Source: Acutalibacteraceae bacterium | GTDB lineage: Bacteria; Bacillota; Clostridia; Oscillospirales; Acutalibacteraceae | Assembly: GCA_045536245.1 (NCBI GenBank) | Contig: JAZSNE010000001.1 | Location: 36,789-100,788 of the forward strand | Direction: 5' to 3' | Length of the DNA: 64,000 bases | Shown here: in pieces, positions 23,856-55,834 of the stretch | Position numbering within the stretch: the stretch's first letter is position 1 | Layout of the letters: the number at the start of each line of letters is the position of its first letter | Position numbers and translations under genes: made by a program | Notes under the pieces: model-generated | Seen by the model: the letters and a program-made list of their open reading frames with translations, nothing else | Database searches by the model: none | What the model was told of the DNA's origin: nothing

Positions 23856-26585
23856 TTATTTTCTGTTAAGCCTGATTACCGTCACAGAATATGCCGGAAC
23901 AGTGTAATTGAACTTATCTCCGAAGCCGTTGACGGTGAATTCCTCAATCTTACAGTCCTCGGGTTGGCCGAGAATGTTATCGTTTGCAAGGCTGTCACCT
24001 GCCACCTGAGAAACCTTTGCACTTGAAGCAACGCCGGCATTTTCAACGTTGACGGCAAGAGTTTTTGATGAACCCGTGACGTTAACGATTTTGACGATGA
24101 TATCGCCGTTTTCGTCTGTGCTGACAACGTGGTAAGCTTCTGCCTCCGCCTTTGAAGCGGTGTCAAAATCAACGTAAAGCTCGCCGTCAATCCAGCATTT
24201 CACCTTTGTGCCGCTGACCTCAACCTTAAGCTGATAGGTTTTGCCCTCAACAGCGGTAAAAGGTCTGACCGTTCCGATAATCTGATTTGATTTTATGCCG
24301 TTTTCAACCTGCTGCAGACAGGAAACGGTGTTATCCCAGCCGCCGATATTCCAGAACCAGCAATTATCGTGGTCTTTAACCGCAAAGGGAATAATGAAAC
24401 CCTCGTTGCCGCTTACTTTTTTGGCATCAACGGTGTAAGTGTAATCCGTCCATTCGTCAAAACCCGTGTAAGCAACCGAGCCTGTGAGGCTGTAAGGCAT
24501 ATTTGTTGCGTCGTTTGTGAGCACTCCGTTTTTGGCAGTTATCTTACCGTCGTTTGCCTTGTTCCAGTTCCACGCAAGGGTGTTTATGGCAAAATTATCG
24601 CTGTAAAGAGTTTCGCCTGTTTTGTTATCCGTTACAAGCACGTTATCAAATTCCGCAACGGTATACCACGCACCCACGCCGACTCTGCCGCTTAAATCCT
24701 TTTGCTCAACCTGCGCACCGTTAAGCTTTGATTCAAGCAGAGCTTTGCCAGTGTTGGTTGAAAAGAGCTTTTGCACATAGTAGCTGATTGAGCCTGTGAC
24801 CTGATGGTTATTGAACCATATGAGGTCGGGTGACCAGTGGGTTGCCGTAAGATTGCCGAAAAGCGGAGCATAGGCCGCCATTCTGACAATATCACCGTTA
24901 CGCTCAAGACCCGTCATATATGCCGCCTCAGCAAGCGCCGCCTTAAGGGTATTTGACCTTGCGGCGTATTCGCCGAGGAACACCTTAAGTCCGCCGCCGT
25001 AGATTGAATCGGTCATACCGTCAACGTCACGGCTGTAATTGGCGTGGTCATAATAGTCTGCATTTTTAAGGAACCATTCGGGTTCGTTATAATAATGCTG
25101 GTCAGTTGCACCTGCAAAATCGCTTGCGTTGCCGCTGCCTATCTGTTCCTTAGCATATTCGTATGACGGCAGATAATTTGCGCCGTGAGTTGCATCAAAA
25201 GCACCCGAAGAATAAATCAGTTCAATACCCTCATAAAGTTCGGGGCTCTCTGCCTTTGCGGCATTGAAGGTATCAAGGAAAGCCTGATAACGTTCAAAAT
25301 AAACCTGACCCTCATTCTCGTTACCGATGCAGATATAGGGCAACTCAAACGGTTCTTCGTGGCCGAGTGCCGCTCTCACCTTGCCCCACTTTGTATCTGC
25401 TCCGCCTCTGCAGAATTCAACAAGGTCAAGCATATCCTGCAGGTATTGCTCAAATTCGGGGGTATACATATCGACGGGTCCCCTGCCTCTCATCTGGCAG
25501 TAAAGGCCGCAGTTGATAACGGGCACGCCGACTGCGCCGAGGTCTTCGGCAAGCTGAAAATACTCAAAGAAGCCAAGACCGTAGCTCATAAAGCTCGGGT
25601 ACGGATCTTCTGCCATTGAAAGGTTTGTCCAGAGGTTTGTGCCTTGTTTTCTTGCGGCAACGTCGCCGTAAGTGCCGCCGAATTCAAGCGGTTCGCCGTT
25701 TCTGCCAACACCGATTGAATCCTTCCAATTGTATGCGGTTTCGGCATCATACCCCTCAATTATGCAGCCGCCCGGAAAACGCAGAAACTTGGGTTCAAGA
25801 GCCTCGAGCATTTCGCCCAAATCCTTACGCATACCGTTTTTGCGGTTTTTGAAGGTGTGCTCGGGGAACATTGAAACCATATCAAACGCTGCCGAACCGC
25901 TGTCAATCAGAACAGCAAGCGTAACGCCGCTGTGTGCTGTTTGCGAAGCTTTAACCGTAAGCTCATATTTCTGCCACTCGCCCGAAACAGAAGCAATTTC
26001 GCCCTGACCGAGCACAGCGTCACCGCAGAGGATTCTTACGCTGACCTTGCCGTTATAGCCGTCAAGACCTTTTGCATAGAAAGAAACGTTATAGTTTTCC
26101 CCTGCTTCAACGGCAATGCCGTCAAGAAAGCCCCTGTTTTGCGCTCCGCCGAAAACAGAGCCCGTATTATTGATTACAAGGTAATTGGGGTTGTTTTCGT
26201 TAAGCTTATCGGCTGCGTTTTTGGCAACGGAAAGTTCTGCGCCGTTCACGCTGCTCCAGCCGTGGAGCTCATCGCCGCTTGCAATCTGCGTAAATTCAAA
26301 AGAACGGTTAACGATTTTTTCGGCATAAAGTCCGCCGTCTGCCGCAAAGTTGATATCCTCAAAGAAAATGCCGAACAGCAAATCGCTGATATCATAAAGC
26401 TCATTGCCTGCATCAACGTCAAGAGTATAGTCCGCCGCCAAAACGTCATAAGCTGCAACGGTGTTTGCCTCAGGCGTTTTTACAGGCGGCTCGGGTGACG
26501 GAAAAATCAAGCCGGACAGCGCCGTAAAAGCCGAAACTATTGCAGCAAAAATCTTTCTGATAAATGTAACCAGAGTATATTTCAT
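23856..26585 (-). CDS. GH51 alpha-L-arabinofuranosidase with inserted lectin-like beta-sandwich domain
   Basis: FFEDINFAADGGLYAE, LRFPGGC, IGNENEG, FLGEYAA, GLERNGDIVRMAAYAPL, C-terminal PAYSVTVIRL; start set to MKYTLV. Confidence 0.9.
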   Translation of the reverse strand: MKYTLVTFIRKIFAAIVSAFTALSGLIFPSPEPPVKTPEANTVAAYDVLAADYTLDVDAGNELYDISDLLFGIFFEDINFAADGGLYAEKIVNRSFEFTQIASGDELHGWSSVNGAELSVAKNAADKLNENNPNYLVINNTGSVFGGAQNRGFLDGIAVEAGENYNVSFYAKGLDGYNGKVSVRILCGDAVLGQGEIASVSGEWQKYELTVKASQTAHSGVTLAVLIDSGSAAFDMVSMFPEHTFKNRKNGMRKDLGEMLEALEPKFLRFPGGCIIEGYDAETAYNWKDSIGVGRNGEPLEFGGTYGDVAARKQGTNLWTNLSMAEDPYPSFMSYGLGFFEYFQLAEDLGAVGVPVINCGLYCQMRGRGPVDMYTPEFEQYLQDMLDLVEFCRGGADTKWGKVRAALGHEEPFELPYICIGNENEGQVYFERYQAFLDTFNAAKAESPELYEGIELIYSSGAFDATHGANYLPSYEYAKEQIGSGNASDFAGATDQHYYNEPEWFLKNADYYDHANYSRDVDGMTDSIYGGGLKVFLGEYAARSNTLKAALAEAAYMTGLERNGDIVRMAAYAPLFGNLTATHWSPDLIWFNNHQVTGSISYYVQKLFSTNTGKALLESKLNGAQVEQKDLSGRVGVGAWYTVAEFDNVLVTDNKTGETLYSDNFAINTLAWNWNKANDGKITAKNGVLTNDATNMPYSLTGSVAYTGFDEWTDYTYTVDAKKVSGNEGFIIPFAVKDHDNCWFWNIGGWDNTVSCLQQVENGIKSNQIIGTVRPFTAVEGKTYQLKVEVSGTKVKCWIDGELYVDFDTASKAEAEAYHVVSTDENGDIIVKIVNVTGSSKTLAVNVENAGVASSAKVSQVAGDSLANDNILGQPEDCKIEEFTVNGFGDKFNYTVPAYSVTVIRLNRK

Positions 26586-26641
26586 TTGTTTTCTCCCGTG
26601 TTTCAATTAAGGGACCGCCTTGTGACAGTCCCTTGGTAATA

Positions 26642-27232
26642 TTATACGTTCAACGCAATATCTTTCAGAATCTTGGTGCATTCATCAATGCCGATAAACG
26701 AGCTGTCAAGACAGATATGGTAATTGCGGCTGTCGCCCCACTTCATATCCGTATAATGCTGATAATACGCCATTCTGCGTTTATCCTTATCCTGAACACG
26801 CTTTATAGGCGTGTCATCCTTTTCGCCGTATACCTCAACAACTCTTTTGGCTCTCGCCTCAATGTTACCGCGGATAAAAACGTTCATCACGTCATCTCTG
26901 TCACGCAGAATATAGTCCGCACATCTGCCAACGATAACGCACGGGCCTTTTTCAGCAAGCTCTTTTATGATCTTGCACTGCAGAATCCAGATTTTATCCT
27001 CGTTGGTCGGGCCTGTATAAAGAGTTCTGTTTGTGAACAGGCTCATAATAAGGCTCGGGTGAGTGTATTCTCCCTTTTCTTTGATATATTCTTCTGCAAA
27101 GCCGCTTTCTGCAGCAACCTTTTCAATAATCTCGCTGTCATAGCAGGGAACGCCGAGCTCTTCGGCAAGGTGCTTGCCGATTGTTCTGCCGCCGCTGCCA
27201 AACTCACGGCTGATGGTGATTATTCTTTTCAT
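26642..27232 (-). CDS. Cytidylate kinase-like family protein
   Basis: ITISREFGSGGRTIG, CVIVGRCADYIL, YHICLDSS. Confidence 0.88.
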   Translation of the reverse strand: MKRIITISREFGSGGRTIGKHLAEELGVPCYDSEIIEKVAAESGFAEEYIKEKGEYTHPSLIMSLFTNRTLYTGPTNEDKIWILQCKIIKELAEKGPCVIVGRCADYILRDRDDVMNVFIRGNIEARAKRVVEVYGEKDDTPIKRVQDKDKRRMAYYQHYTDMKWGDSRNYHICLDSSFIGIDECTKILKDIALNV

Positions 27233-27272
27233 AGTGTTTCTCCTTTCAGTCGCAACAGTATTGTCAGATTAT

Positions 27273-28526
27273 TTATAAATGTTCCTGAACGTTTTTGGCG
27301 TAATGTCCCGAATCCTGAAAGCCGTTTTCGGTGCGGATACATTCGCCCCATTTGCGTGCAATTTCTTCGTAGCTGTCGGTTTCGATTTTTGCCCTTTCAA
27401 AACCGTCCTTACTGCCTCTGATGCACCAATCGCTTGACCACATTCCGTGACCAGTTGCTTTGTATGTCCAGAGGAACCAGCTGTAACCGAGAGCGTCAAG
27501 GGTATTGAAGCAATTCTCCCACGTTGTTTTCTGATGAGGGTAGAATTCACCCATCATCATGGGAACGTTGCAGAAAATAAGCTGAGTAAAGAAAGCAAAA
27601 AGATTAAAAATAAAGTTCGAGTTGTTATAAAAATGAACCTGATAAACAACGTTTTTCCAGCCTTTAAAAGCTGCGTTGGGCAGAGCGATAGCTGTCCAGA
27701 TGCACTCCATTGTTATGATATGGTCTGCATCGGCTTCTCTGACAACGTCATAAAGGCGTGTATAAATAAACTCATTGTTTTTTCTTCTTTGGAGTTCGTT
27801 TGTGGGCACGTCGCACATCGGTTCATTGAGAAGGTCATACATAGCAACCGCAGGGTTACCTTTGAATCGGGTTGCTATTTCACGCCAGAGTTCATCAGTC
27901 AGTTCACGGTATCTTTCGCCCTGCTCCGAATCGTCATAAAGACCGCAGGAACCTTTTTTGCCGCTGTGCGGAGCATCGCTCTGATAACCGACTGCGCCGT
28001 GCATATCAAGCACAACGTAGAGCCTGCGTTTTGAGCATTCTTCAACAACCCATTCAAGACGGCTGAAATCCCAGCTGCCGTTTTCATCAAGAATCTTTCT
28101 GCCGTTATCGTCATAATAAAAATTGCGGAACCAGAACGGAACACGGACACTGTTAAAGCCCATAGCCTTGATATCGTCAAGGTCTTTTTCGGTTATCCAG
28201 TTATCCATATAGGTGTTAAAAAGTTCATATGCCTTTTCTTCGCCGAAACGGTTTGTGAGCTTTGTGAGAACGTCATAATGGTCGGTTGCTTCTTCATAGG
28301 GGCAGAGCCAATCCTCCCATATCATCCAGCTGCCGAGGTTAACGCCTTTGAGCCTGACCTCCTCACCTTTGCGATTAACGATTTTTCTGCCCTTTGTTGT
28401 GAGAAAATCATCAGCTGTGAAGCCTTCCTGCAGCTGTGCTTCGGCAGAGGAAACCATTGAAAAACCAAAGGTTGAAAACACGGTTGCTGCCACAAGCATA
28501 ACCGAAACAAATTTTTTGATATTCAT
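27273..28526 (-). CDS. Secreted GH5 glycoside hydrolase
   Basis: Classical signal peptide (..SSAEA), GVNLGSW, NSVRVP, LDMHG, YDLLNEP, VHFY, MGEF. Confidence 0.9.
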   Translation of the reverse strand: MNIKKFVSVMLVAATVFSTFGFSMVSSAEAQLQEGFTADDFLTTKGRKIVNRKGEEVRLKGVNLGSWMIWEDWLCPYEEATDHYDVLTKLTNRFGEEKAYELFNTYMDNWITEKDLDDIKAMGFNSVRVPFWFRNFYYDDNGRKILDENGSWDFSRLEWVVEECSKRRLYVVLDMHGAVGYQSDAPHSGKKGSCGLYDDSEQGERYRELTDELWREIATRFKGNPAVAMYDLLNEPMCDVPTNELQRRKNNEFIYTRLYDVVREADADHIITMECIWTAIALPNAAFKGWKNVVYQVHFYNNSNFIFNLFAFFTQLIFCNVPMMMGEFYPHQKTTWENCFNTLDALGYSWFLWTYKATGHGMWSSDWCIRGSKDGFERAKIETDSYEEIARKWGECIRTENGFQDSGHYAKNVQEHL

Positions 28527-28559
28527 TTCAACACATCTCCTTTTTGGATTCGCATAACG

Positions 28560-29933
28560 TTAAAAATTTTCAACCGCATCCCAATCGGCTACCTTGCCCG
28601 TTTTTGCCCAGAGAAGCTCCGCTTCTTTTGCCCAGGCTTCATAGCCGGCAGGCGTTTCGGGATATTTTTCATAATGCGCAGTAAGCTTGCCGCTTGTCAC
28701 GATTGCGTTGATTACGGCTTTCAGCTCGGCAGGCTTTATGTTGCCCGTCACAAGACCGACAACAACAAAAATCAGCGTTTTGGCGTAATCGGCAAAGCTG
28801 AGCTGAATGCCGTTGCCCATACTGCTGAGCAGCTTACAGCTGAAAATAACGTCTTTTTTGAAAAGATATTCGTTTGCCTTTGCGCTGTGGCGCACGATTG
28901 AACCGAGAAGCGCCATAAGGCTTGCAAACTCTTTACCCTGGGTATCGTTATATCTCTTATTGATGCTCCAGAGAGCCGCTCTTGTGGGGTATGCTCCGTT
29001 TGCCATAACCTGCGAAGCAACGTCAACGGCAATATCGCTCAGCGCAAGCGCAGAGGTGCAGCCCTCGCCGCAGTTGGGTTTTGTGAGGCAAGCGGCATCA
29101 CCCATGGCAATAAAGCCGTCTGAAACAAACGAATACGGCGCTCTGTGATAGGGGGTTATGCCCTTTTCAATTTTTGTTACCCTGTGAGCAGGGAGCCTGA
29201 CTGTTTTTTCAAACAGCTTATACACCTTTTCGGCAACGTCAAAGCCGCCGCAGGCGCCGATACCGATAAGAGCATCGCTGCCGCCGCTCGGAGCGAGCCA
29301 CGATTTGAAATAGAGCCAGAAATCGGAGCGGAGATAGCGGCTGTTTCTTTTTTCTTCAAAATCAATATATCGAAGTATTACATAGAATATGTCATCGGGT
29401 TTAAGCTCGAATTTTTCAATACCGTAGCCGTCGGGCAAACTGCGTCTGACAACGGCAGGGATACCCGAGCAGTCGGCAACCAGGCGGCAGTTGACGGTGA
29501 TTTCCGCACCGTCTTTTTCATAGACAACGCCGTTGATTTTGCCGTTTGCATCATATGTAAGCTTTTTGAACGAGGCTTCGTATTCGAGCACTGCGCCTGC
29601 CTGAGCCGCCCAATCGTTCATCAGCACGCAGTATTTATGCTTATGCATACCGACAACGGCAAGCTTTGAAGGTTTGGGGTGGTTACCGTAAACAGAGCAG
29701 ATTGCCGAATCCTCAAACGTGAATTCATATATGCCGTCGCCCTCTTTTACCTCGGGCAAACCGAACTGCTTCATTTCGTCCTTGCCCATATGGAAGATAT
29801 CGTATGAGGGGCTGAGTTTATCTCTGCTGTCCTTATCAATAAGCAAAACGGAAAAACCTTTTTCCGCCATTCTTCTTGCAAAATAGCTGCCTGCAGTTGA
29901 AGCACCTACTATTACAACATCATAATTTTTCAT
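28560..29933 (-). CDS. FAD-dependent oxidoreductase, geranylgeranyl reductase/FixC-like
   Basis: DVVIVGASTAG dinucleotide fold, VADCSG, MGDAACLTKPNCGEGC. Confidence 0.8.
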   Translation of the reverse strand: MKNYDVVIVGASTAGSYFARRMAEKGFSVLLIDKDSRDKLSPSYDIFHMGKDEMKQFGLPEVKEGDGIYEFTFEDSAICSVYGNHPKPSKLAVVGMHKHKYCVLMNDWAAQAGAVLEYEASFKKLTYDANGKINGVVYEKDGAEITVNCRLVADCSGIPAVVRRSLPDGYGIEKFELKPDDIFYVILRYIDFEEKRNSRYLRSDFWLYFKSWLAPSGGSDALIGIGACGGFDVAEKVYKLFEKTVRLPAHRVTKIEKGITPYHRAPYSFVSDGFIAMGDAACLTKPNCGEGCTSALALSDIAVDVASQVMANGAYPTRAALWSINKRYNDTQGKEFASLMALLGSIVRHSAKANEYLFKKDVIFSCKLLSSMGNGIQLSFADYAKTLIFVVVGLVTGNIKPAELKAVINAIVTSGKLTAHYEKYPETPAGYEAWAKEAELLWAKTGKVADWDAVENF

Positions 29934-29948
29934 TTTTTCACCCCATAA

Positions 29949-31447: not shown

Positions 31448-33595
31448 ATGGATTCTCTGTTTATAAGAATAACTGCTTTTTTCAGCGGCATTCTCATCTG
31501 GCTGGGTGCAATTTTCAGCCATCCGAATATTATCCCCGAATTCCCCGAAGTTAATGAAAAAAGCAAAAACGCATTTGAAGAAGGTGAATTTGAGATGGGC
31601 GAATTTGACATCGTTGTATCGCCTGACGGCGACGATGCAAACGTAGGCTCACTCGAAAATCCCCTTAAAACCCTTGAAGCAGCAAAAGAAAAAGCAAAAT
31701 CCGCTGAAACAGACGGTCAAATAACCGTATGGTTCAGAGAAGGAACTTACGTGCTTGAAAATACGGTTGATTTTACCGCTGCCGACAAAGATAACGTTCT
31801 TTACCGCTCTTACCCCGATGAAAAGGTTGAATTTTCGGGTGCAAAGGAAATAAGCGGTTTCAGCGAATCAACTCTCAACGGTGTCAAGGTCTTTGTGACT
31901 GACGTTCAGCTTGACTCGGAAGACGATTATTTCCGCTCTCTTTTTAACGGCGAAAAGCGTCTTAAACGCCCCGAATACCCCAAGGAAGGTACTTTCAAAA
32001 TCAAAGACCCCAAGCTTGACGAAGCGGTTGCCCCCGAAATTGACCCAAACTTTTTCACACACTCCGCAGTGTTTTATGCTCACACACAAGACGTGCTTGA
32101 TTTTGCAAACGCAGGCGACGTTGAAGTTAAAGTAATGCACTTCTGGTGTGACGAGCATCTGCCCGTTCATTCCGTTGACAGCGCAACAGGCAGGGTGGAA
32201 ACAACCAAGCCCTCATCAATGACCCTCAGGGTTGACGATAACTATATTTTTGAAAATGTTAAAGAAGCTCTTTCCTTACCCGGCGAATGGTATCTTGACC
32301 GCGCTGAAGAAAAGCTTTATTACGTTCCCGAAAACGGCGAAACACCCGAAAACACTGTGCTTTATGCCGGCGTTAACGAGCAGCTTTTCACCTTCAGGAA
32401 TGTTCAGAACGTTTCATTCCGAGGCATTGATTTTATCAATACAGACTGGGAACCCGTTGGCAAAAGCGGCGCTTTTTACGGCAATGTTTTTGACGAATCG
32501 CACCCTCTCCATAACAACATAGAATACAGCGCAGTGCATCCGCAGGCAGCATATGAAACCCCCGCCGCAATTCTTATTTCTGCTTCATCGGGCATCAATT
32601 TCACTGACTGCCGCTTTGAAAACATTTCATACACCGCAGTTAAATTTGAAAACGCTGCAGCCGACTGCTGCATAAGAAGCTGCCTTTTCAATGAAATCGG
32701 CGCAAACGCAGTTTTCATTCACGGCGAATTTGTTGTGCCTGCTTCAACAAGAAACATTGACGTAATCGACTGCAACATCGGCAACTACGGCAGAATTTTC
32801 AACAACGCAATCGGCATTCTTCTCACTCATGCCATTGACTGCGACCTGACGAACAACGAAATTCACGACGGTTGGTACACAGGCATTTCCGTTGGCTGGA
32901 ACTGGGGCTACACCCCCAACTCAACAAACAACATCAACATCAGCAACAACCTCATTTATAACATCGGCAACGGCTGGCTCTCCGATATGGGCGGCATTTA
33001 TACCCTCGGCATTCAGCCCGGCACAGTTATCAGAGGCAACGTTATTCACAACGTCGGCTGCGATGAAGGTCAATACGGCTACGGCGGCTGGGGAATTTAT
33101 CTTGACGAAGGCTCAAGCGAAATTCTTGTTGAAAACAACCTTGTTTATGACTGCTCTTCAGAAACCTTCCACCAGCACTATGGCAGAGATAACATTATCA
33201 AAAACAATATTTTTGCATTCGGCGGCGAAGGTGCTTTTATTATCACAAGGCACGAAGAACACAATTCACTCACCGCAGAAAACAACATCTTTGTTGTTGA
33301 CGATGCAACGATGTATGCTTTTGACGTTGACAGCGATTGGTTCAGAGATAACGGCAACCTTTTCTGGGATTATGAAAGAGGCGGCAACGTTTACTCGGGT
33401 CACACAACAAAGCTTTTTGACAGATATACCATACCGATTGTGATGTCAAAGGGATACTATAATAACGCAGTGTTTGCAGACCCGTTATTCAAAGATGCCG
33501 CAAACCGTGATTTCACGCTTGCGACCAACTCCCCTGCTCTTGAAACAGGTTTTGTGCCGTTTGAATATAACGCAGGCACGATGACACAGTTCTGA
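31448..33595 (+). CDS. Right-handed parallel beta-helix protein, GH141-like glycoside hydrolase
   Basis: VVSPDGDD.N.G...P.KTL start, PGEWYLD, YTGISVGW.WG, DMGGIYTLG.QPGT, GIYLDEGSS, PbH1-type repeats. Confidence 0.7.
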   Translation: MDSLFIRITAFFSGILIWLGAIFSHPNIIPEFPEVNEKSKNAFEEGEFEMGEFDIVVSPDGDDANVGSLENPLKTLEAAKEKAKSAETDGQITVWFREGTYVLENTVDFTAADKDNVLYRSYPDEKVEFSGAKEISGFSESTLNGVKVFVTDVQLDSEDDYFRSLFNGEKRLKRPEYPKEGTFKIKDPKLDEAVAPEIDPNFFTHSAVFYAHTQDVLDFANAGDVEVKVMHFWCDEHLPVHSVDSATGRVETTKPSSMTLRVDDNYIFENVKEALSLPGEWYLDRAEEKLYYVPENGETPENTVLYAGVNEQLFTFRNVQNVSFRGIDFINTDWEPVGKSGAFYGNVFDESHPLHNNIEYSAVHPQAAYETPAAILISASSGINFTDCRFENISYTAVKFENAAADCCIRSCLFNEIGANAVFIHGEFVVPASTRNIDVIDCNIGNYGRIFNNAIGILLTHAIDCDLTNNEIHDGWYTGISVGWNWGYTPNSTNNINISNNLIYNIGNGWLSDMGGIYTLGIQPGTVIRGNVIHNVGCDEGQYGYGGWGIYLDEGSSEILVENNLVYDCSSETFHQHYGRDNIIKNNIFAFGGEGAFIITRHEEHNSLTAENNIFVVDDATMYAFDVDSDWFRDNGNLFWDYERGGNVYSGHTTKLFDRYTIPIVMSKGYYNNAVFADPLFKDAANRDFTLATNSPALETGFVPFEYNAGTMTQF

Positions 33596-33642: not shown

Positions 33643-34575
33643 TTATTTAGGCATTTTGTCTTTATACTGATAGCATTTCACATAGTCCACCTTGAACTCG
33701 GCAGGCCAGTTTTCGGCAGGTGTTTTGCTGATTTCACCGGTGCCGTGTCTGTCTGAATGCTGAACACCGTTATCACCGGCAAACTCACACGAAACCAGAA
33801 GATATTCGGGATTCTGCGAAACTCCGCCTGCATCAAGCCTGCCCGTTTCATAGCCGTTGATATAAAAGATATATTCATTCTCATTCCACTCAACGCCGTA
33901 AGTGTTATATTCTTCATACGGATTATTTTCAATAAAATATTTGCCGATAGAAGCGTTTTGAATTTCAGGGCCGTAGCCGTCATAGATAATTCCCGTGGTG
34001 ATGCAGTCGTTACCCCACCAATTGTCTTTGTAATAGAACGACTCAAAAACGTCAACCTCCGTGCCGTCTTTGCCCGAGCCGTCAACGTTGGTAACGTCGC
34101 CGTTCATCATCCAGAACGCGCTCCACATACCCGTTGCAGCAGGCAGAATGCATCTGATTTCAAAATAGCCGTAGGTCTGCTCGTATTTGCCCTGGGTTGT
34201 TATCTCGCCCGTGTACCAACCCGCCTTGTATTCTTTGAAGTCAATCTCATCGTGCCATTCGTCATAATAGCGGTTTTCAAGCGGCTCATCAAGATACTGC
34301 GCAGTGATAATAAGATTGCCGCCCTCAACACGCACCATATCCTCGTGCCAGTAGCCGCCCTTGCGCTCCGTTACCCACCACGAAGAACCCCATTTTGTTT
34401 TGTCAAGCTCTGTTCCGTTGAAATCATCTCGCCAGACCTCAACAAACTTGCTCATATCAATCTGCTTGGTTTTATCGGGCATTTTGCCGATATCAAGCAA
34501 ATCAAGAAACTGCGGATTAATCATCATCATTATTGAAATAAAAAAGCTGAGAATTGTTTTAATCATTTTATCCAC
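33643..34575 (-). CDS. GH16 glycoside hydrolase (beta-glucanase/laminarinase-like)
   Basis: WRDDFNG..LD..KW, YGYFEIR, WSAFWM, catalytic EVDVFE, VDYVK. Confidence 0.88.
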   Translation of the reverse strand: MDKMIKTILSFFISIMMMINPQFLDLLDIGKMPDKTKQIDMSKFVEVWRDDFNGTELDKTKWGSSWWVTERKGGYWHEDMVRVEGGNLIITAQYLDEPLENRYYDEWHDEIDFKEYKAGWYTGEITTQGKYEQTYGYFEIRCILPAATGMWSAFWMMNGDVTNVDGSGKDGTEVDVFESFYYKDNWWGNDCITTGIIYDGYGPEIQNASIGKYFIENNPYEEYNTYGVEWNENEYIFYINGYETGRLDAGGVSQNPEYLLVSCEFAGDNGVQHSDRHGTGEISKTPAENWPAEFKVDYVKCYQYKDKMPK

Positions 34576-36699: not shown

Positions 36700-37724
36700 A
36701 TTTTCGGATTGTGTTCCCCAACCACAGCGCTTATGATTTCTCTGCTCTCGGCAGGTTCGTGTTTCTTTCAAATAAGAAGTATTCTATTATACAATTCAGC
36801 CAAAAGGATATAGCGGACTTTTTAAAACTTTATCCCGACTGTTTTAAAGATGAAGAGGAAAAAGCTTATATAATTGCAAATCTCGGCGAAGGTGTATCTT
36901 GCATAGGCGATGACGGCTTCTGTTATATTGTTAAACCTGAAGATGCACAAAAAACCGATTTCAAAGCATCCGTATGCAAAGAAATCCAAAAGGCAAAAAA
37001 GCTTTATCGAATGTTAATAACTGGCTATGATGCAAATGAAAGCCTTCTTTCCTCGGCAAATGAAACTCATCTTTCCGTTAAACCGTCAAGCACCTTTTTT
37101 AAAAAATCCGTTTACGTCAACAAAGAGAACGATTATGCTCTTGGGTTCTGTTTTAAACAAAGCAAGAAAGAAAACCAACCTCTTGTTATTATCCTTTGCG
37201 GAAAAAGATTTGTGCGTTCTCACCTTTGGCACAGGCTGAAAAAGCACGATTGCTCCGTTCTTATTCCTCAAATGCCGGCACCGAAGCTCCACGGCAAATT
37301 CAGCTATACGCATTTTCCTGATGCCCTCATAGCACTGACAGAGTTAATCTGCAATAAATATAAAACAGATAAAAACCGAATTTATATTTCAGGCGTTTCT
37401 GCAGGTGCAGAAATCACCTGGCTTTGCATTCACAGATTTCCCGATTTTTTTGCCTGCGGAATACCTGTTATGGGCGCAACGACCGCAACAGATAAGCTCG
37501 ATTACGGAAGATTCAAAAGCACACCCCTTTGGGTTGTTCACGCCGAAAACGATAAAGTTGTCCGCATTGATTTCAATGACCAAAGTGTTAAGGAAATCCT
37601 TGCACTTGGCGGCAACGTAAAATACACACGCTATGAAAAAGGCGGACACGGTATTTCGCCAAAATTCTTTAAAAACGAAAACTGGGATGAATGGATGTTC
37701 AGCCAGAGCCTTGAAAACAGATAA
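36696..37724 (+). CDS. Alpha/beta hydrolase, paralog 2
   Basis: RIYISGVSAGA, TPLWVVHAEND, KYTRYEKGGHG; ATGA overlap with paralog 1. Confidence 0.75.
   Translation: MNFRIVFPNHSAYDFSALGRFVFLSNKKYSIIQFSQKDIADFLKLYPDCFKDEEEKAYIIANLGEGVSCIGDDGFCYIVKPEDAQKTDFKASVCKEIQKAKKLYRMLITGYDANESLLSSANETHLSVKPSSTFFKKSVYVNKENDYALGFCFKQSKKENQPLVIILCGKRFVRSHLWHRLKKHDCSVLIPQMPAPKLHGKFSYTHFPDALIALTELICNKYKTDKNRIYISGVSAGAEITWLCIHRFPDFFACGIPVMGATTATDKLDYGRFKSTPLWVVHAENDKVVRIDFNDQSVKEILALGGNVKYTRYEKGGHGISPKFFKNENWDEWMFSQSLENR
37608..37721 (+). repeat. 114-bp direct repeat, copy 2 (3' end of esterase 2)
   Basis: One C/T difference from copy 1. Confidence 0.95.
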
Positions 37725-48295: not shown

Positions 48296-48582
48296 TATTC
48301 TTCCATCCTCTTGAAAATCTCTTCGTAGCCGTTACAGCCGTACTGCAACGAACGGTTAACACGGCTGATTGTTGCGGTGCTTGCGCCTGTTTCGCTGACG
48401 ATGTCGCTGTAAACCTTTTTATCACGCAGCATCTTGGCAACAACAATTCTCTGCGAAATGGATTTTATTTCGGTAACGGTGCAGAGATCCTCAAAGAAAT
48501 CGTAGCACTCTTCCATTGTGCGCAGGTTAAGAATTGCTTCAAAGAGAAAATCAACGTTCTTATCTTTAATTTTATCGCTCAT
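48295..48582 (-). CDS. TrpR-like YerC/YecD DNA-binding protein
   Basis: FFEDLCT..EI..ISQR, ETGASTATISRVNRSL.YG. Confidence 0.92.
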   Translation of the reverse strand: MSDKIKDKNVDFLFEAILNLRTMEECYDFFEDLCTVTEIKSISQRIVVAKMLRDKKVYSDIVSETGASTATISRVNRSLQYGCNGYEEIFKRMEE

Positions 48583-48712
48583 ATTAAACCGCCTTTCCGA
48601 TTTATGCGCTTTTACACTTTAATATTTTAACACGTGAAACGTAAAATGTAAAGAAAAATTTTATTTTTAATAAGAAAAAACAAAATTTGTTTCAAGATAA
48701 TCAATTTGTCTA

Positions 48713-48741
48713 TTGCACCCAAGGAATAAAATGTATATAAT
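48713..48741 (+). promoter_or_regulatory. Sigma-A promoter of galT
   Basis: TTGCAC-17-TATAAT. Confidence 0.7.
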
Positions 48742-48771
48742 AATGAAAGCAAATGTAAACGGAGGTTTATT

Positions 48772-50259: not shown

Positions 50260-50265
50260 AAAATC

Positions 50266-50289
50266 AACGGCATCCTTTCGGGTGCCGTT
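50266..50289 (+). terminator. galT terminator
   Basis: AACGGCATCC-tttc-GGGTGCCGTT plus T-run. Confidence 0.8.
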
Positions 50290-50340
50290 TTTGTTTATTT
50301 AGTTTTGTTTGTAATCCTCAGGCGTACCGCACAGCACACT

Positions 50341-50503
50341 TTGTAGGGGACGGCGACTCGACGTCCCGAACGTGACACACAGTCATAACAAAAGATCTGA
50401 CGGTTTATCGGGGGTCGCCAACCCCTACATTTATCGGATTTCGGCACACGAAATATAATCTGTTTTTTCAAATAAGCGGCGGCTTGAGGGCAAGCCGCCC
50501 TAC
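50341..50503. repeat. Cluster of GTAG-type REP-like palindromes
   Basis: GTAGGGGACGGCGACTCGACGTCCCG (50343-50368), ..GGGGTCGCCAACCCCTAC (to 50428), GCGGCGGCTTGAGGGCAAGCCGCCCTAC (50476-50503). Confidence 0.75.
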
Positions 50504-50585
50504 CCGGTTGCCGTCAGTCAATTTACAGCAAAATATGAAAAAAACACCGGACTTGTTTGGGTTCACCCCTTGCAAGCCCTGTTTT

Positions 50586-50813
50586 TTACTGTTCAATTTC
50601 TTCCTCAATCAGCTTCATCAGTGCGCTGGGTTTGATGCCCATTGCATCGGCAATTCTGAAAAAGGTTTCAATGGTCGGTTTGCGAACGCCTCTTTCGATT
50701 GCGCTCAGGTGAGTTCTGCCGATATCGGCAAGACCGCTCACAACCTCCTGCGAAAGACCTTTCTTTTCACGCACGCTCTGTATAACTCTGCCAACAATAA
50801 CCGAATCAAGCAT
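50586..50813 (-). CDS. XRE-family helix-turn-helix regulator
   Basis: REKKGLSQEVVSGLADIGRTHLSAIERGVRKPTIET. Confidence 0.92.
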   Translation of the reverse strand: MLDSVIVGRVIQSVREKKGLSQEVVSGLADIGRTHLSAIERGVRKPTIETFFRIADAMGIKPSALMKLIEEEIEQ

Positions 50814-50862
50814 CACATCATCTCCTTACAACAGAATTGTAAGCTGATACGCACCTGTTTAT

Positions 50863-50902
50863 GAATACATATGTTGACAATTGAACACAAATGTATTATA
50901 AT
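50863..50902 (+). promoter_or_regulatory. Perfect sigma-A promoter overlapped by an inverted operator-like pair
   Basis: TTGACA (50874)-17-TATAAT (50897); half-sites AATACATATGT / ACAAATGTATT with 12-bp spacer. Confidence 0.7.
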
Positions 50903-51017
50903 TTCAGCATAAAGGAGATGTTTCCGATGAACTGACATACAATTAGCATATGATATTTACATTATAGTAATATTATGGTATAATTATAATAACCAATATT
51001 AACAAGGGGGATTTTTT

Positions 51018-51467
51018 ATGTCATTAATCAGTGGATTTTTCGCAAAGATAATTGCTCTGTTTATGTCTTTGATAACTTTTATCACAGGCTTATTCGGCGG
51101 AATATTTATGCCGCCCGTTGACGGCTACGTTGCTTTGGAAAACACAAGCATTTCAACAGGAAACGGCAAATATCTTATAATCGACAGTTATGACGATTTT
51201 GTTGAGGCTGTTGGCGAAATCAAGAACGAAACCAAGAAATACGACGAAGAATATTTTGAAACAAAATCGGTTCTTGTTTTCAATGCCACTCTGCCGCAGA
51301 CAAATTACTTTGTTGTTTGCGATTCAATCGATGAAGCAGGCGAAACGGTTACGGTCAGATATCATCTTGAGAATGACGGCGGTTTTGGCGCAACAATGAT
51401 TTCATCGCAGACGGTGTTGGTCGAAATCAGCAAGAACGTAGAAAACGCAAGCATTTTGACCGTTTAA
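51018..51467 (+). CDS. Exported hypothetical protein, PrcB C-terminal-like domain
   Basis: N-terminal amphipathic helix; YDEEYFETKSVLV...VTVRY...MIS.QTVLVEISK pattern. Confidence 0.55.
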   Translation: MSLISGFFAKIIALFMSLITFITGLFGGIFMPPVDGYVALENTSISTGNGKYLIIDSYDDFVEAVGEIKNETKKYDEEYFETKSVLVFNATLPQTNYFVVCDSIDEAGETVTVRYHLENDGGFGATMISSQTVLVEISKNVENASILTV

Positions 51468-51493
51468 TTAAAACCCAACAAATAATTTCAATC

Positions 51494-51523
51494 AGGGTAG
51501 CAAGAATTTAATCTTGCTACCCT
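51494..51523. terminator. Bidirectional terminator
   Basis: AGGGTAGCAAGA-attta-ATCTTGCTACCCT. Confidence 0.75.
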
Positions 51524-51792
51524 ATTCTTCTGCGCTGGCGCGGGTTTTGTTCGCAGCTTGTTTTGCACACAAGGATTGTGTCGCTGCCGATAACGTCAAT
51601 ATCTTCCCAGCAGATGCGTATGCGCTCCCGTCTGCCGCAGATGCCGAAATATTTGGGTCTGCCGTAAACAATCAGCGCCACCACCCTGCCGCAGCTTTTA
51701 TCAACCTCAATGTCGCTCACAAAGCCGAGCCTGCAGCCGTTTGATTTGTTGATTATCTCCTTGCACCGCAGTTCGGTTATGCAACAGTTCAT
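51517..51792 (-). CDS. YlmC/YmxH family sporulation protein (PRC barrel)
   Basis: ELRCKEIIN..NG.RLG.VSDIEVD..CGRVVALIV, I.WEDI..IG.D.ILV; TAG stop. Confidence 0.9.
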   Translation of the reverse strand: MNCCITELRCKEIINKSNGCRLGFVSDIEVDKSCGRVVALIVYGRPKYFGICGRRERIRICWEDIDVIGSDTILVCKTSCEQNPRQRRRIG

Positions 51793-52109
51793 CAGCATCA
51801 CTCCGTTATATAATATGTTATTATATTTTATGCCGAAAGCGTTGAAAGGTTGACAGCGAGCCGTGCGCTCTGCGCGGCTTAAGAAGGCAAGTCAGCGCAG
51901 ACGTTGGATATCGGCAAGCAGCATAACGAGCGAATTTCTCCCTTATCTGCAGTTTTTCGGGCAGCCATACGTGGCTGCCCTTTTTATATGAAATGAATAG
52001 GTTTAAAAAAATTTCAAAATTTTTTCAAAAAAGTTTAGACCAACTCCGATTTTGCATCGTCATTAGGGTGAAAGGCAAAAAAAGCAAACAAAAATCGGAG
52101 GTAAATAAA

Positions 52110-53285
52110 ATGAAAAACACACTCAGAAAAACAATCGCACTCTTTCTCGCATCGTCAATAATCGCCACGGCGGCTGTTACCGCATCGGCGGCAGAAACAA
52201 AAACAGACGTTATTCCCCTTGAGCCGGAAATCTCACTTTCGTTCATAGAAAAGCTTGCGGAATACTTCAGAGGATTTATGGCAATATTCAGCTCGGAGCA
52301 GGAAGAAACAAGCTCGGTTGAGTTCACAATGGAGCAGGGTGAAATCTTCGGCAAAAAAGAATTCTTCAACAGCTCCCACGCCTCAACTGTTTTAAGGCTT
52401 GCAAACGGCACCGTTATTTCCGCTTGGTTCGGCGGATCAGGCGAAGGCGGCAGCGACGTTCGCATCTGGTACGCAACCTATGACGGCGAATGGAGCGACG
52501 CAAAGGTTATCGAAACGGCAGACAACGAGGCTCACTGGAACCCTGTTCTTCATGACTTCGGTTCGTTCGTAAGACTTTATTACAAGGTTGGCAAGGACAC
52601 AAAGGTATGGGTCACAAAATTCGTTGATTCTTTTGACGGCGGCAAAACCTGGACTGCTCCGCAAGAGCTTGTTGCCGGCGACACAAGCGGCGGCAGAGGT
52701 CCCGTCAGAAACAAAAACTTTGTAACGGCAGACGGCGTTATCATTGCCCCTGCATCAACAGAGCAGGGCAGCTGGAAAGCATTCTTTGACATTTCTGAAG
52801 ACGGCGGCAACACCTGGACAAAAACAGCTTATGTTGAAGCTTATGATAAAAACGGCAAAGAGGTTCAGATGATTCAGCCCACAATCTGGCAGAGCAGCGA
52901 AGGAATTCACGCAATGTTCAGAACAAAATCCGGTTATATCTACAGAAGCGATTCCTTTGACGGCGGCTACACCTGGTGCACAGCTTACTCAACAGGCATT
53001 TACAATAACAACAGCGGCATTGACTGCGTGATGACGGATAACGGCTGGCTCTGGCTTGCTTATAACCCCATCAGGGTTTCAGGCATCCGCAACAAGCTTT
53101 CACTTGCTGTTTCAAAGGATAACGGCAAAACCTGGGAGGACGTAACGGTTCTTGAATCAACTCCCCTCAACCTTTTCGCAGAGTATTCTTACCCTGCCAT
53201 TATTGCAAACGGCAACAAGCTGTTCATTACCTACACTTACAAAAGAGTTCAGATTAAATACGCTTTCATCGAATTTGAAGGCTGA
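52110..53285 (+). CDS. Secreted BNR/Asp-box beta-propeller protein (predicted neuraminidase-like)
   Basis: Signal peptide (..ASA|AE), four Asp-boxes SFDGGKTW, SEDGGNTW, SFDGGYTW, SKDNGKTW; HAST, GPVRNK, EYSYP. Confidence 0.8.
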   Translation: MKNTLRKTIALFLASSIIATAAVTASAAETKTDVIPLEPEISLSFIEKLAEYFRGFMAIFSSEQEETSSVEFTMEQGEIFGKKEFFNSSHASTVLRLANGTVISAWFGGSGEGGSDVRIWYATYDGEWSDAKVIETADNEAHWNPVLHDFGSFVRLYYKVGKDTKVWVTKFVDSFDGGKTWTAPQELVAGDTSGGRGPVRNKNFVTADGVIIAPASTEQGSWKAFFDISEDGGNTWTKTAYVEAYDKNGKEVQMIQPTIWQSSEGIHAMFRTKSGYIYRSDSFDGGYTWCTAYSTGIYNNNSGIDCVMTDNGWLWLAYNPIRVSGIRNKLSLAVSKDNGKTWEDVTVLESTPLNLFAEYSYPAIIANGNKLFITYTYKRVQIKYAFIEFEG

Positions 53286-53410
53286 TTCAATAAACAGTTA
53301 TGAGAGAAACCGTAACGGCGGCGGAAATCGGTGCTGCGATAACGCCGCTTTTCGGTTGAACAAATGAGGAGTTTAAAACATATAACAACAATCAAAAGGA
53401 GAATAAAACA

Positions 53411-53641
53411 ATGAAAAAACTCATTTTCGGTCTCGGCGTATTTTTTACAAGCGTTCTCGGCATTTTAAGCTCAATAGGATTTGACATTTTGGGCAAAATG
53501 TTTTTGGAATTGCACGGCTTTTACCCTGCAAACGCAATGGAAATGACTGGTTATTGCCTGTTTGCGTTTGTTATTACCGCCGTAATCGGTTTTGCGGTTG
53601 CTCTTGTTGGTGCATTTACCCGAGAAAAAAACATAAAGTGA
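53411..53641 (+). CDS. Small 2-TM membrane protein, MKKLI-G paralog 1
   Basis: RBS AAGGAG; 76 aa; two hydrophobic helices. Confidence 0.7.
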   Translation: MKKLIFGLGVFFTSVLGILSSIGFDILGKMFLELHGFYPANAMEMTGYCLFAFVITAVIGFAVALVGAFTREKNIK

Positions 53642-53652
53642 GGTAACGGGCA

Positions 53653-53807
53653 ATGAAAAGGCTTAAAAACAGCAAGTTTTTCTTATGGTTTGGCAAAGGC
53701 ACAAAAGCACAGGTTTTGTTAAAAAGTCAGCAGCCGTTGCCATGGCTTTTCTGATGTGTTACCTTGTCGGCTACGGCTTCGGCGCACTGCTGAAGGTTAT
53801 TGTTTAA
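53653..53807 (+). pseudogene. Probable frameshifted small membrane protein
   Basis: RBS GAGG and ATG 53653 give MKRLKNSKFFLWFGKGTK; one extra A in ACAAAAGC would continue STGFVKKSAAVAMAFLMCYLVGYGFGALLKVIV* to TAA 53807. Confidence 0.45.
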
Positions 53808-53820
53808 AGTAGGGATATGA

Positions 53821-54087
53821 ATGAAAAAAACAGTTTTCGGCATCGGCACGATGCTGTCGGGTGCAATCGTTTTGGCAGGGATTGTTATCAAAAGAGGGTA
53901 GGGAGATTATTATTCATACTCGAGGGTTGAAGATGCATTTATGATAATGATAGGAGTAGGCTTTATGCTTGCCCTGACCGCCGCCTATGACATTGATTAC
54001 AAGGCTCTGTTCGAGAAAGCCAAAGCTTTTTTCAAAAACAAAAAATCAGCAAAAATTAAAGGAGAGAACAAAGATGAAACTAACTGA
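53821..54087 (+). pseudogene. MKKLI-G paralog 2 interrupted by in-frame TAG
   Basis: MKKTVFGIGTMLSGAIVLAGIVIKRG-TAG(53899-53901)-GDYYSYSRVEDAFMIMIGVGFMLALTAAYD...ETN*, same frame, second TM after the stop. Confidence 0.65.
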
Positions 54088-54496
54088 AAAAGAAACCGCA
54101 AAAAGGATTATCACCCTTGCCGCTTATCCCGTTATCTGGGCGCTTTGCATTGCTTGCTTCTGGGTCAGAGGTGAATTCCTTGACGCTATGGGCTACAGTC
54201 TTATCGTTATCTGGTTTCTTATCCCTTTTTCAACCGCCGCTGTTTCTTTCTTCATCGGCAAAAAAGATTACCTCGGCAAGCTTAAATATGCGTCGCCTCT
54301 GTTCTTCGGAACAATGTTTATGCTTCTGGATTATTTAACTTTCAGTCTTGCCAACACAGTAGCCTTCGGCAAACTCAATGAGCCCGAAGCAGAATTGTTC
54401 GTTGCAGGCACAGCGATTTCTCTTATAAGCCTTATCATCGGAGTTGTATTTAACTATATAAATAAAAATGAACAAAAGGAGTGCATATCAAAATGA
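54074..54496 (+). CDS. 4-TM membrane protein resembling the C-terminal membrane domain of XRE membrane regulators
   Basis: DAMGYSLI..W..IP, SFFIGKKDY.GK.K, LFFG.M.ML..Y.TFSLAN; start set to MKLTEK. Confidence 0.65.
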   Translation: MKLTEKETAKRIITLAAYPVIWALCIACFWVRGEFLDAMGYSLIVIWFLIPFSTAAVSFFIGKKDYLGKLKYASPLFFGTMFMLLDYLTFSLANTVAFGKLNEPEAELFVAGTAISLISLIIGVVFNYINKNEQKECISK

Positions 54497-54732
54497 AAAA
54501 ATTAATTCTCGGTATCGTAATGTTTATTGTAGGTATATCAAAGTTTGTTGATATTTATAACATATCAACTATACTGCGCTCAGCTCAGAGTATGATGCGT
54601 TTCAACGACTTTGACTTTGTTGTCTGCACATTCTTCGGCGCAATAATGTTTATCATCGGCATTGCAGGTATTGCGGTTGCTTTTATCGGCGCATTTTCAC
54701 GCAAAAAATCAACAAGTGAGGTGGAAAAATGA
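54493..54732 (+). CDS. Small 2-TM membrane protein, paralog 3
   Basis: MKKLILGIVMF...; ATGA overlap with upstream gene. Confidence 0.7.
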   Translation: MKKLILGIVMFIVGISKFVDIYNISTILRSAQSMMRFNDFDFVVCTFFGAIMFIIGIAGIAVAFIGAFSRKKSTSEVEK

Positions 54733-54947
54733 AAAAATTAATTCTCGGCATTGCAATGCTTTTCACCGGTATGACCGCATTTGCAAAAATGTATAACACA
54801 ACGGCTGCAATTCTGATGTCCCCCCTTCAGGGCAGCGATATGAACTTTGCAGAGATTATCAGCATACTTTTCACCGCAGTTATGTTTTTGATTGGAATAA
54901 TCGGTCTGGTTTACGCCGTTGAGGACACAAAAGACAAACGAACATAA
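54729..54947 (+). CDS. Small 2-TM membrane protein, paralog 4
   Basis: MKKLILGIAMLF...; first 20 nt identical to paralog 3; ATGA overlap. Confidence 0.7.
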   Translation: MKKLILGIAMLFTGMTAFAKMYNTTAAILMSPLQGSDMNFAEIISILFTAVMFLIGIIGLVYAVEDTKDKRT

Positions 54948-55057
54948 AGGTAAACCGACTTACGTAAACACCAAATATTTTTACTCAAAAAACAGGCAAT
55001 TCGCCCATGCATTGCCTCAAAACAAAAACTTTTATCAACATTTAAGGAGATGTTACC

Positions 55058-55834
55058 ATGTCAGCTATCATTTCAAAAATCGTTTCTGTTTTCACATCAA
55101 TCATTATGTCATTTCTCGCCCTTTTCGTCCCTTCCGCTCCGCCTGCCGATGACCCCTATGCAAGGCTTGAACTGCCCGAATACTATCTTGGCGAATGCGT
55201 TTCAACTGACGCCGAAGAAGCTGTTTTTCTCTATAATGACGCCGTTAAAAAGAGCCGCAAAGTCTATTTTGCAAACCTTGAAGGCGAGCAGAAAATCAAG
55301 CGTATCGGCGAAATCGAAGGCGACGGTGCAATCGGCGCAGTTCTCAAGGTAGCCGTACCGGTTATTGACAAGGCTATTGAAAAGAACAATTTTGAGGTGG
55401 ACTATGTTCCCGGCAGAGGCAACCTTATGGCAAGCGACGTTACAACGGCAGCCACATACAAAACCGATGACGGCAAAACCTATGTTGCTCTTTATCTCAA
55501 AGACCAGATTGACGGCCCTGACGGCACGCAGTATGACGGCGGCCCCGTTTCAAGAGGCATAGGCACTCTGGGCGGCGTTGAGCACGCACTTATGGAGCTT
55601 GGAGCAACAATCAAATCAGGCAGAGAAACAATCAGGATTGAATACACAAACGCTTATATCATTTGCGAGATAAGCTCAAGCGGCTACATTGTTGGCGGCA
55701 CATGGCATTATGACGTTAACGTTACTGTAGGCGATGCTAAGATTAAGATTTCAGCCATTTCAGCAAACGTTAAGAATCTCACAGCCAAGCTTGAATATGC
55801 AATCGTTCTCAGAGATGAACCCGTTCAGGTATGA
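55058..55834 (+). CDS. Exported hypothetical protein
   Basis: RBS AAGGAG; 258 aa; amphipathic N-terminal helix plus Pro-rich linker. Confidence 0.75.
   Translation: MSAIISKIVSVFTSIIMSFLALFVPSAPPADDPYARLELPEYYLGECVSTDAEEAVFLYNDAVKKSRKVYFANLEGEQKIKRIGEIEGDGAIGAVLKVAVPVIDKAIEKNNFEVDYVPGRGNLMASDVTTAATYKTDDGKTYVALYLKDQIDGPDGTQYDGGPVSRGIGTLGGVEHALMELGATIKSGRETIRIEYTNAYIICEISSSGYIVGGTWHYDVNVTVGDAKIKISAISANVKNLTAKLEYAIVLRDEPVQV

Follow-up and report, generated by a model that had tools for sequence, protein, structure and literature searches.

This study deals with an unusual hydrophobic helix that forms the N-terminus of five proteins encoded in a 64,000-nucleotide stretch of DNA (the window) from an Acutalibacteraceae bacterium. 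An earlier note on this DNA had read the helix as a candidate for a non-canonical, lineage-specific export or anchoring signal. We find that such helices form a distinct and recurrent class on extracytoplasmic hydrolases, strongly enriched in the lineage. Judging from their sequences, we lean toward seeing them as a lineage-typical variant of the Sec-type signal that works as an uncleaved signal-anchor and tethers the hydrolases to the membrane. Both the enrichment in the lineage and anchoring as the best reading thus agree with what had been proposed, whereas a nature outside the Sec system finds no support. Most likely, the class is a lineage-typical twist on a known mechanism and not a new secretion system.

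The window covers positions 36789 to 100788 of contig C48 in a 2.5-Mb metagenome-assembled genome (MAG) of 56 contigs and 44.6% GC, labelled Acutalibacteraceae. Its close relatives are ruminant-gut MAGs that carry the labels Acutalibacteraceae, Clostridia or Oscillospiraceae bacterium. A simple caller based on codon usage and Shine-Dalgarno sequences yielded a set of 2,132 genes. The search for the class started from a profile of the five window segments, which matched many similar N-termini on other contigs. The earlier note had suggested scanning a hidden Markov model of these segments over the proteome and related genomes; this did bring in more members, both in the genome and in the genus, but on iteration the profile took up classical MKK signal peptides in no more than five rounds. 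The iterated profile is therefore useless for delimiting the class, and the core motif must be regarded as generic. Two other definitions were used. The curated class holds 53 members, chosen after inspection of every protein with a hydrophobic N-terminus. The objective rule demands a single hydrophobic N-terminal segment, a first Lys or Arg after residue 3, fewer than two such residues among the first eight, and neither an AxA site nor a lipobox; it selects 53 of 2,108 proteins, with heavy overlap with the curated set. The class thereby makes up about 53 of the roughly 270 N-terminally hydrophobic single-span proteins of the genome, and most members start with an ATG behind a recognizable Shine-Dalgarno sequence.

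What sets these helices apart is mainly their beginning, their end and one of their faces. Where ordinary signals have an MKK n-region, the class has 3-5 hydrophobic residues and then one Lys or Arg (median position 6); exactly one such residue is found within the first 12 positions in 43 of the 53 members. A hydrophobic stretch extends from near residue 2 to residues 21-26, with this single charge as its only break; the charge-free run behind the charge has a median of 14-20 residues. The net charge of the N-flank amounts to +0.87, compared with +2.54 in classical signals (+2.4 to +2.5 across classical and lipoprotein signals), and that of the C-flank to -1.40. Of the properties that mark a substrate of type I signal peptidase (SPase I), the class lacks the basic n-region at the extreme N-terminus as well as the c-region, since a rule-based scan for [AVS]-x-A sites near the helix end returned none among its members. 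The h-region, on the other hand, is present, with a mean hydrophobicity of 0.73-0.81 that equals that of classical signals and internal membrane helices. The lipobox [LVI][ASTVI][GAS]-Cys is likewise absent (0 of 53); seven members have a Cys nearby, and none of these fits. A late first Lys or Arg goes together with the absence of both AxA and lipobox (Fisher p = 6e-12).

The composition of the helix is rich in Phe, Ile and Ser rather than in Ala, Leu and Val as in ordinary signals. Its hydrophobic moment peaks sharply at 100 degrees, at twice the value of within-segment shuffles. The difference with other N-termini is found in the curated sets (0.30 vs 0.14-0.15, p about 1e-16) and also in the objective sets, which are blind to Ser (0.25 vs 0.13-0.14 for all other N-terminal classes, p about 3e-7). 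The moment arises from Ser and Thr at positions i, i+3/4 and i+7, which form a stripe along one helix face. At the other end, the hydrophobic run is terminated by Pro in 32 of the 53 members, and Pro accounts for 11% of the 20 residues that follow; the corresponding shares for the other classes are 3.9% and 4.8% (p about 1e-9). Helix ends resembling G-L-F-G-G are found on many members, both here and elsewhere in the genus. The features that the earlier note had listed as shared, namely a single Lys or Arg, a Ser/Thr face, a Pro linker and the absence of an AxA site and a lipobox Cys, thus hold, and exceed chance, for the class of 53 as a whole.

The five N-termini on which that list was based are all present in the sequence where they had been placed, and four of them start with an ATG behind a Shine-Dalgarno-like purine run. 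The first belongs to a GH51 arabinofuranosidase (gene 23856-26585, minus strand) with the Pfam domains ASD1_dom, Alpha-L-AF_C and CBM_4_9. Its helix and Pro stalk, MKYTLVTFIRKIFAAIVSAFTALSGLIFPSPEPP (26484-26585), reach 26.7 bits against the class profile, and its ATG is preceded by the Shine-Dalgarno sequence GGGAG. A beta-helix or GH141-like protein (gene 31448-33595, plus strand) carries the helix MDSLFIRITAFFSGILIWLGAIFSHP (31448-31525), as supported by Pfam, start context and profile match. The GH16 protein (gene 33643-34566, minus strand; identified through Pfam and the starts of its orthologues) has the helix MIKTILSFFISIMMMINP (34513-34566) and is a borderline member, with a Lys at position 3 and a hydrophobic run of only 13 residues. 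Its start is most likely the ATG at 34566 (MIKTILSFF...), three codons later than the GTG at 34575 that had been quoted, because 79 orthologues start with M-[IL]-K and the sequence further upstream is not conserved. The fourth member, a 149-aa protein without Pfam match (gene 51018-51467, plus strand), gives a profile match; its helix MSLISGFFAKIIALFMSLITFITGLFGGIFMPP (51018-51116) has the recurrent G-L-F-G-G ending that is seen in other species of the genus too, and the sequence GGGGG stands in front of its ATG. Finally, a 258-aa protein (p55058; gene 55058-55834, plus strand) begins with a helix and Pro linker, MSAIISKIVSVFTSIIMSFLALFVPSAPP (55058-55144), that form the top profile match of the whole genome at 30.7 bits.

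The AlphaFold2 model of p55058 illustrates the layout well, as a globular domain (46-252) stands apart from a detached helix (residues 2-20), with a disordered linker (21-45) between them. The model is a confident one (predicted template modelling score 0.78) and gives the domain an alpha/beta fold. Neither Pfam nor NCBIfam contains a family that matches this domain, and a fold search returned no significant match in the PDB. The invariant residues of the protein family include a V-x-R-G-I-G-T-L motif. With five members where 1.35 would be expected in 64 kb, the window is rich in the class (Poisson p = 0.0125). Genome-wide, seven pairs of class-member genes lie at most 4 kb apart, for example C12:54811/55712, C51:57888/58962, C55:8605/9605 and C18:197/1681. 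Taken together, the close pairs and the density of the window indicate that hydrolase genes with this type of signal tend to cluster.

Despite their distinct appearance, the helices are close kin of the ordinary Sec signals of the same organism. Aligned on the single Lys or Arg, the class shows I, I/L, S/A, x, I/F, L/F and S/A at positions +1 to +7, and the same pattern follows the last Lys or Arg in the 71 SPase I and 71 lipoprotein signals of this genome. With a leave-one-out class profile, held-out members score a median of 10.7 bits, SPase I signals 7.5, lipoprotein signals 7.1 and 830 internal membrane helices 1.6, so the gap between the class and ordinary signals is only about 3 bits. 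A motif beyond plain hydrophobicity does exist, but it is mostly a property of Sec signals in general in this organism. The shared core motif proposed earlier is therefore real in that it exceeds what hydrophobicity alone would give (10.7 vs 1.6 bits for internal helices), and not exclusive in that it also starts ordinary SPase I and lipoprotein signals (K-I-I-S-x-F-L-S). The idea that it forms a module separable from Sec targeting has to be abandoned, as the core is the n/h-boundary pattern of ordinary signals. That idea had leaned on a BNR/sialidase-like protein (52110-53285, plus strand; Pfam, profile score), in which a classical signal (MKNTLRK...ASAAE) is followed by what was taken for a similar helix. 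Against the class profile this second helix, SFIEKLAEYFRGFMAIFS (residues about 43-62), scores -2.1 bits; it is amphipathic and charged, with a mean hydrophobicity of 0.30 and a moment of 0.51, as opposed to a hydrophobicity of 0.73-0.81 in the class, to which it does not belong.

The proteins that carry the signal are almost all hydrolases of extracytoplasmic type, as far as the families matched in a Pfam scan of 52 members are concerned. Several families occur more than once (Metallophos six times, GH16 and ceramidase three times each, and GDPD, GH36, phosphodiesterase and Exo_endo_phos twice each), next to single cases of GH92, GH30, GH43, GH18, GH39, GH51, S8 subtilase, M23 peptidase, alkaline phosphatase, PI-PLC and a lipase-like protein. 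The nature of these carriers identifies the segment as an export signal, and as one that is not specific for carbohydrate-active enzymes (CAZymes). A display tag for CAZymes, as had been imagined, is hard to reconcile with the phosphoesterases, lipase-like proteins, ceramidases and peptidases among the carriers.

Homologues of the window proteins reveal how the signal is kept or exchanged in evolution. The p55058 family was found only in this genus among 17 genera searched, and has six paralogues in the genome (C41:783-1550, C47:29517-30233, C4:135891-136784, C47:19333-20202 and C24:19769-20683, together with window 55058-55834, plus strand). The 12 closest homologues have all kept the helix (e.g., MSALIAKIVSIFTSVIMSII...IPSAPP), with S10 and S14 invariant, and among them the helix is as conserved as the domain (identity 0.62 vs 0.58 for distant pairs), which suggests that it is retained under selection. 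Between related members of the family, conservation does not extend to the C-terminal end of the helix, which reads VPSAPP in some proteins and FGLGGE in others. Nine of ten more distant homologues have an MKK...FAAC lipoprotein signal with a long acidic linker, and the tenth has a classical signal; lipoprotein paralogues of the family occur in this genome as well as elsewhere in the genus. Similarly, the closest out-of-family homologue of the GH51 enzyme (57% identity) is a lipoprotein. For the beta-helix protein, a same-family homologue from a sister genus has a classical, cleavable MAKKF...AYA signal, and more distant homologues from other families lack a signal. Across the 79 GH16 orthologues the segment varies more than the catalytic domain does (entropy 1.41 vs 0.69), with K3, I10, I16 and P18 persisting. 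On the evidence of these alignments, helix and lipoprotein anchor are interchangeable on homologous domains.

The class is common within the genus, and its wider distribution is narrow. Twelve other species of the genus have 4-31 profile matches each at E <= 0.02, and of the 30 top matches that were inspected most share this design. At the level of the order, 120 genomes from 30 families gave best matches that, where inspected, are almost all classical signals or lipoproteins, with one convincing member in a genome of the same family. In 150 Clostridia genomes (108 genera) at E <= 5e-4, this genome has 20 matches and one same-family genome has three; eight others have one match each, all of them MKK signals, and the rest have none. 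Counts of matches per genome at E <= 1 are not specific, and only stringent thresholds combined with inspection of the sequences are informative. We also sampled 160-400 kb from each of five other genomes with our own gene caller, which gives small and noisy samples: 727 genes from three other families contain no clear member, where about 18 would be expected at the rate of this genome, and at most one candidate (G028). Within the genus, one genome has two members in 132 genes and another, with 53% GC, has none in 215; the latter genome, although assigned to the same genus, also has very few profile matches. Because this genome supplied the training sequences of the profile, part of the enrichment seen in the genus reflects orthology and shared ancestry. 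Literature on Acutalibacteraceae signals, on glycoside hydrolases with uncleaved signals, on signal anchors with serine zippers and on n-regions without charge yielded no description of the class.

What the sequences show, namely the class itself, its relation to Sec signals, the proteins that carry it, where it occurs and how it is exchanged for lipoprotein signals, can be brought together in a simple picture of export. The very hydrophobic helix, rich in Phe and Ile and running from about residue 2 to 21-26, would be recognized co-translationally like any signal of the Sec/signal recognition particle route. It would then enter the lateral gate of SecYEG with its N-terminus and single Lys or Arg left on the cytoplasmic side, while the acidic, Pro-rich C-terminal flank and the hydrolase domain would be translocated. 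Given the lack of AxA and lipobox and the Pro that usually stands directly behind the helix, signal peptidases presumably do not cut, and the helix would stay in place as a single span. A short Pro-rich stalk would then hold the enzyme at the membrane's outer face, in a functional equivalent of the lipoprotein anchor. As for the Ser/Thr stripe, helix-helix packing is the most plausible guess for its role.

Several elements of this signal-anchor picture are well rooted in what is known. Proteins that are N-terminally anchored by an uncut signal form a large, recognized class in gram-positive bacteria (LocateP, PMC2375117). Positive charges before an uncleaved hydrophobic signal orient the C-terminus outward, and both the -3/-1 rule and the helix-breaker rule for cleavage are standard (PMC9360617). 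In our class, an N-terminal helix of roughly membrane-spanning length is found without a peptidase site, even if the charge-free run alone covers 14-20 residues. The flank charges are positive-inside and the domains extracytoplasmic, in a weaker form than in typical anchors; the sign of the charges suggests that the C-terminal domain lies outside, though the asymmetry is weak. The genome itself offers few other means of attachment. A search with regular expressions found a single TLxTC protein resembling sortase (C28:7684-8700) and about two C-termini of LPXTG-like type, so tethering to the membrane would be the chief means of keeping enzymes at the cell surface. Two type I signal peptidase genes (185 and 195 aa), identified at the same level, lie in tandem at C12:105210-106367 on the minus strand.

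Critically speaking, a number of observations weigh against an uncleaved anchor. The charge-free run after the Lys or Arg, at 14-20 residues (13 in GH16), resembles that of a signal peptide more than a comfortable membrane span, and a single positive charge is a weak determinant of topology. Many members have a G-L-F-G-G-like end, which places a helix breaker at -4 and a Gly at -1 and could conceivably be used by SPase I. The homologue of the beta-helix protein with its cleavable classical signal implies that this family, at least, can be released, and the GH16 segment evolves faster than the domain behind it, as cleaved signals do. The cleavage state of the class is, moreover, deduced from sequence features.

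These points lead to the first alternative, according to which the segments are atypical Sec signals that are cleaved after all, with SPase I cutting at non-AxA sites (L-F-G/G or S-x-G/, the slash marking the cut) and the hydrolases being released. We consider this unlikely for the class as a whole, yet it deserves serious attention. The n/h-boundary motif is shared with ordinary signals and so is the overall length, the median end of the hydrophobic run being residue 21 and the median cleavage site of ordinary signals residue 23. A Gly or Pro helix breaker with small residues a few positions further on is common. The short, fast-evolving GH16 segment, the cleavable signal on the beta-helix homologue and the two tandem SPase I paralogues, whose specificities could differ, would all fit. 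The likeliest candidates for cleavage at an atypical Gly are short members, GH16 among them, and those with a G-L-F-G-G ending. On the other hand, more than 150 other signals of the genome carry textbook AxA or lipobox sites, which implies that its peptidases recognize the usual motif. Pro at +1 blocks SPase I, and Pro follows the helix directly in 32 of the 53 members. Related proteins of the p55058 family do not share the putative site, the helix in this family is as conserved as the domain, and homologues of two members (p55058 and GH51) are lipid-anchored, not released.

A second alternative adds a layer to Sec export, namely a dedicated, lineage-specific sorting signal whose stripe, Lys and Gly or Pro end are read by a membrane factor, for instance an oligomerizing partner or an intramembrane protease, that clusters the hydrolases or releases them conditionally. 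The stripe is indeed real, specific for the class and alpha-helical in its periodicity, and its residues are preserved from one orthologue to another; the class is restricted to hydrolases and, taxonomically, to one genus and a close relative, and the G-L-F-G-G ending recurs across species. Nevertheless, we judge this possibility quite improbable. No candidate reader came to light: the co-occurring export genes that the earlier note had hoped for did not appear, as class members have neither a conserved neighbour nor a recurrent small membrane-protein partner, and small membrane proteins are no more frequent near them (0.11) than near other genes (0.13). None of the curated NCBIfam models for N-terminal sorting signals (YSIRK, KxYKxGKxW, SipW-type and others) matched any of the five window proteins at E <= 1. 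The distance of only about 3 bits from ordinary signals, the weak sequence constraint in the GH16 orthologues and the share of common ancestry in an enrichment measured with a genome-trained profile argue in the same direction. In its fullest form, in which about 50 hydrolases per genome of this ruminant-gut genus would bear a genuine, factor-read sorting signal with a fate distinct from both release and simple anchoring, the proposal is a long shot. Such fates would include membrane clusters of hydrolases held by helix-helix packing, or conditional release by an intramembrane protease. If true, the signal would be an N-terminal counterpart, in its logic, to LPXTG or PEP-CTERM signals.

The last alternative, a Sec-independent amphipathic helix lying in the plane of the membrane or surface, or else an artefact of wrongly assigned start codons, is very hard to maintain: it could appeal to the raised moment and to in-frame basic codons upstream of the ATG in a few members (e.g., the GH51 TTG at 26606), but with a mean hydrophobicity of 0.73-0.8 the helices fall in the transmembrane range, which the truly amphipathic BNR helix (0.30) does not, an extracytoplasmic enzyme without another signal needs the segment for export, most starts are an ATG behind a Shine-Dalgarno-like purine run with the upstream frame often closed within a few codons, and the same starts are kept in orthologues. 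The in-plane anchor had been among the original suggestions; at moments of 0.25-0.30 the polar face consists of Ser/Thr and one Lys, and the mean hydrophobicity of 0.73-0.81 equals that of internal membrane helices. Wrong start codons were rejected on the Shine-Dalgarno evidence and the agreement between orthologues. Tat and type IV prepilin signals were rejected as well for absence of their motifs, as RR is absent from the first 25 residues in all 53 members and none contains G-[FMLIVA]-[STA]-[LI]-x-E; a motif search of the genome, done with regular expressions only, found no prepilin peptidase either.

Returning to the uncleaved signal-anchor, its nearest known relatives are the N-terminally anchored or type II signal-anchor proteins (LocateP, PMC2375117), with which the class shares a single N-terminal helix without peptidase site, a catalytic domain outside, flank charges of positive-inside sign and a substantial part in the exported proteome. 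It differs from them in having one Lys or Arg near residue 6 behind 3-5 hydrophobic residues instead of a basic cytoplasmic n-region, and in a Phe/Ile-rich helix with a pronounced Ser/Thr stripe and a Gly or Pro end. It is furthermore found almost only on hydrolases and enriched in one uncultured genus, rather than being general. In comparison with the SPase I and type II signal peptidase (SPase II) signals of the same genome, the motif after the last Lys or Arg and the length are alike, the cross-scores amount to 7.1-7.5 bits and the types are interchangeable on homologous domains; the class stands apart by the missing MKK start, AxA site and lipobox Cys, by twice the hydrophobic moment and by about three times more Pro after the helix. 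Transmembrane helices with Ser/Thr motifs or small-xxx-small patterns offer a third comparison. These are association motifs, and like them the class has Ser, Thr or Ala at i, i+3/4 and i+7 on one face; its stripe could just as well stem from contact with the translocon, or have no specific meaning.

If the helices do stay uncut, roughly a fifth of the N-terminally hydrophobic single-span proteins of the genus, and a large share of its hydrolases, would be displayed on the membrane rather than released. This bears on how abundant ruminant-gut bacteria capture the breakdown products of polysaccharides and phosphoesters. There is also a practical side, as we suspect that standard predictors call many members non-secreted or ambiguous for want of a basic n-region and an AxA site; counts of the secretome and of extracellular CAZymes in such MAGs would then be too low. 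Two contrasting signal designs on homologous domains within one genome, moreover, form a natural test set for the positive charge that a signal-anchor needs, for the choice between cleavage and retention, and for the function of a Ser/Thr stripe in an anchor.

The window also contains ordinary signals for comparison. A GH5 cellulase (27273-28526, minus strand; MNIKKFVSVMLVAATVFSTFGFSMVSSAEA/Q) and an alpha/beta hydrolase (57767-58600, minus strand; MNKTKKIIAIILAFCFAFGAMPVCFA/QEE), both identified by translation and Pfam, have classical signal peptides of the textbook MKK...AxA type, just as the earlier note had stated. Some look-alikes resemble the class in part. A 274-aa protein (window 4859-5683, minus strand) that starts with MKNRIALFAVSAAAVAVIGVLTVSLFGGGAEIEDK combines a classical basic n-region with a helix ending in L-F-G-G-G, as in many class members. 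In an array of small two-helix membrane proteins (window 53411-54947, plus strand), the second helix of one protein, FAEIISILFTAVMFLIGIIGL, scores 11.0 bits against the class profile and is the sole non-N-terminal segment in the proteome to reach at least 10 bits. Last, Phe-rich helices such as GFFQKIIAFFKNLFGL and GLINSIKAFFANIISFFASVFKF are found at the C-terminal end of large proteins with classical N-terminal signals (C32:63763-66075, residues 743-765 of 770; C6:23854-27936, the last 16 of 1360; C4:5644-7011, residues 430-455 of 455). Their resemblance to the five-sequence profile is weak (2.6-6.3 bits), and they may be membrane-binding or anchoring helices.

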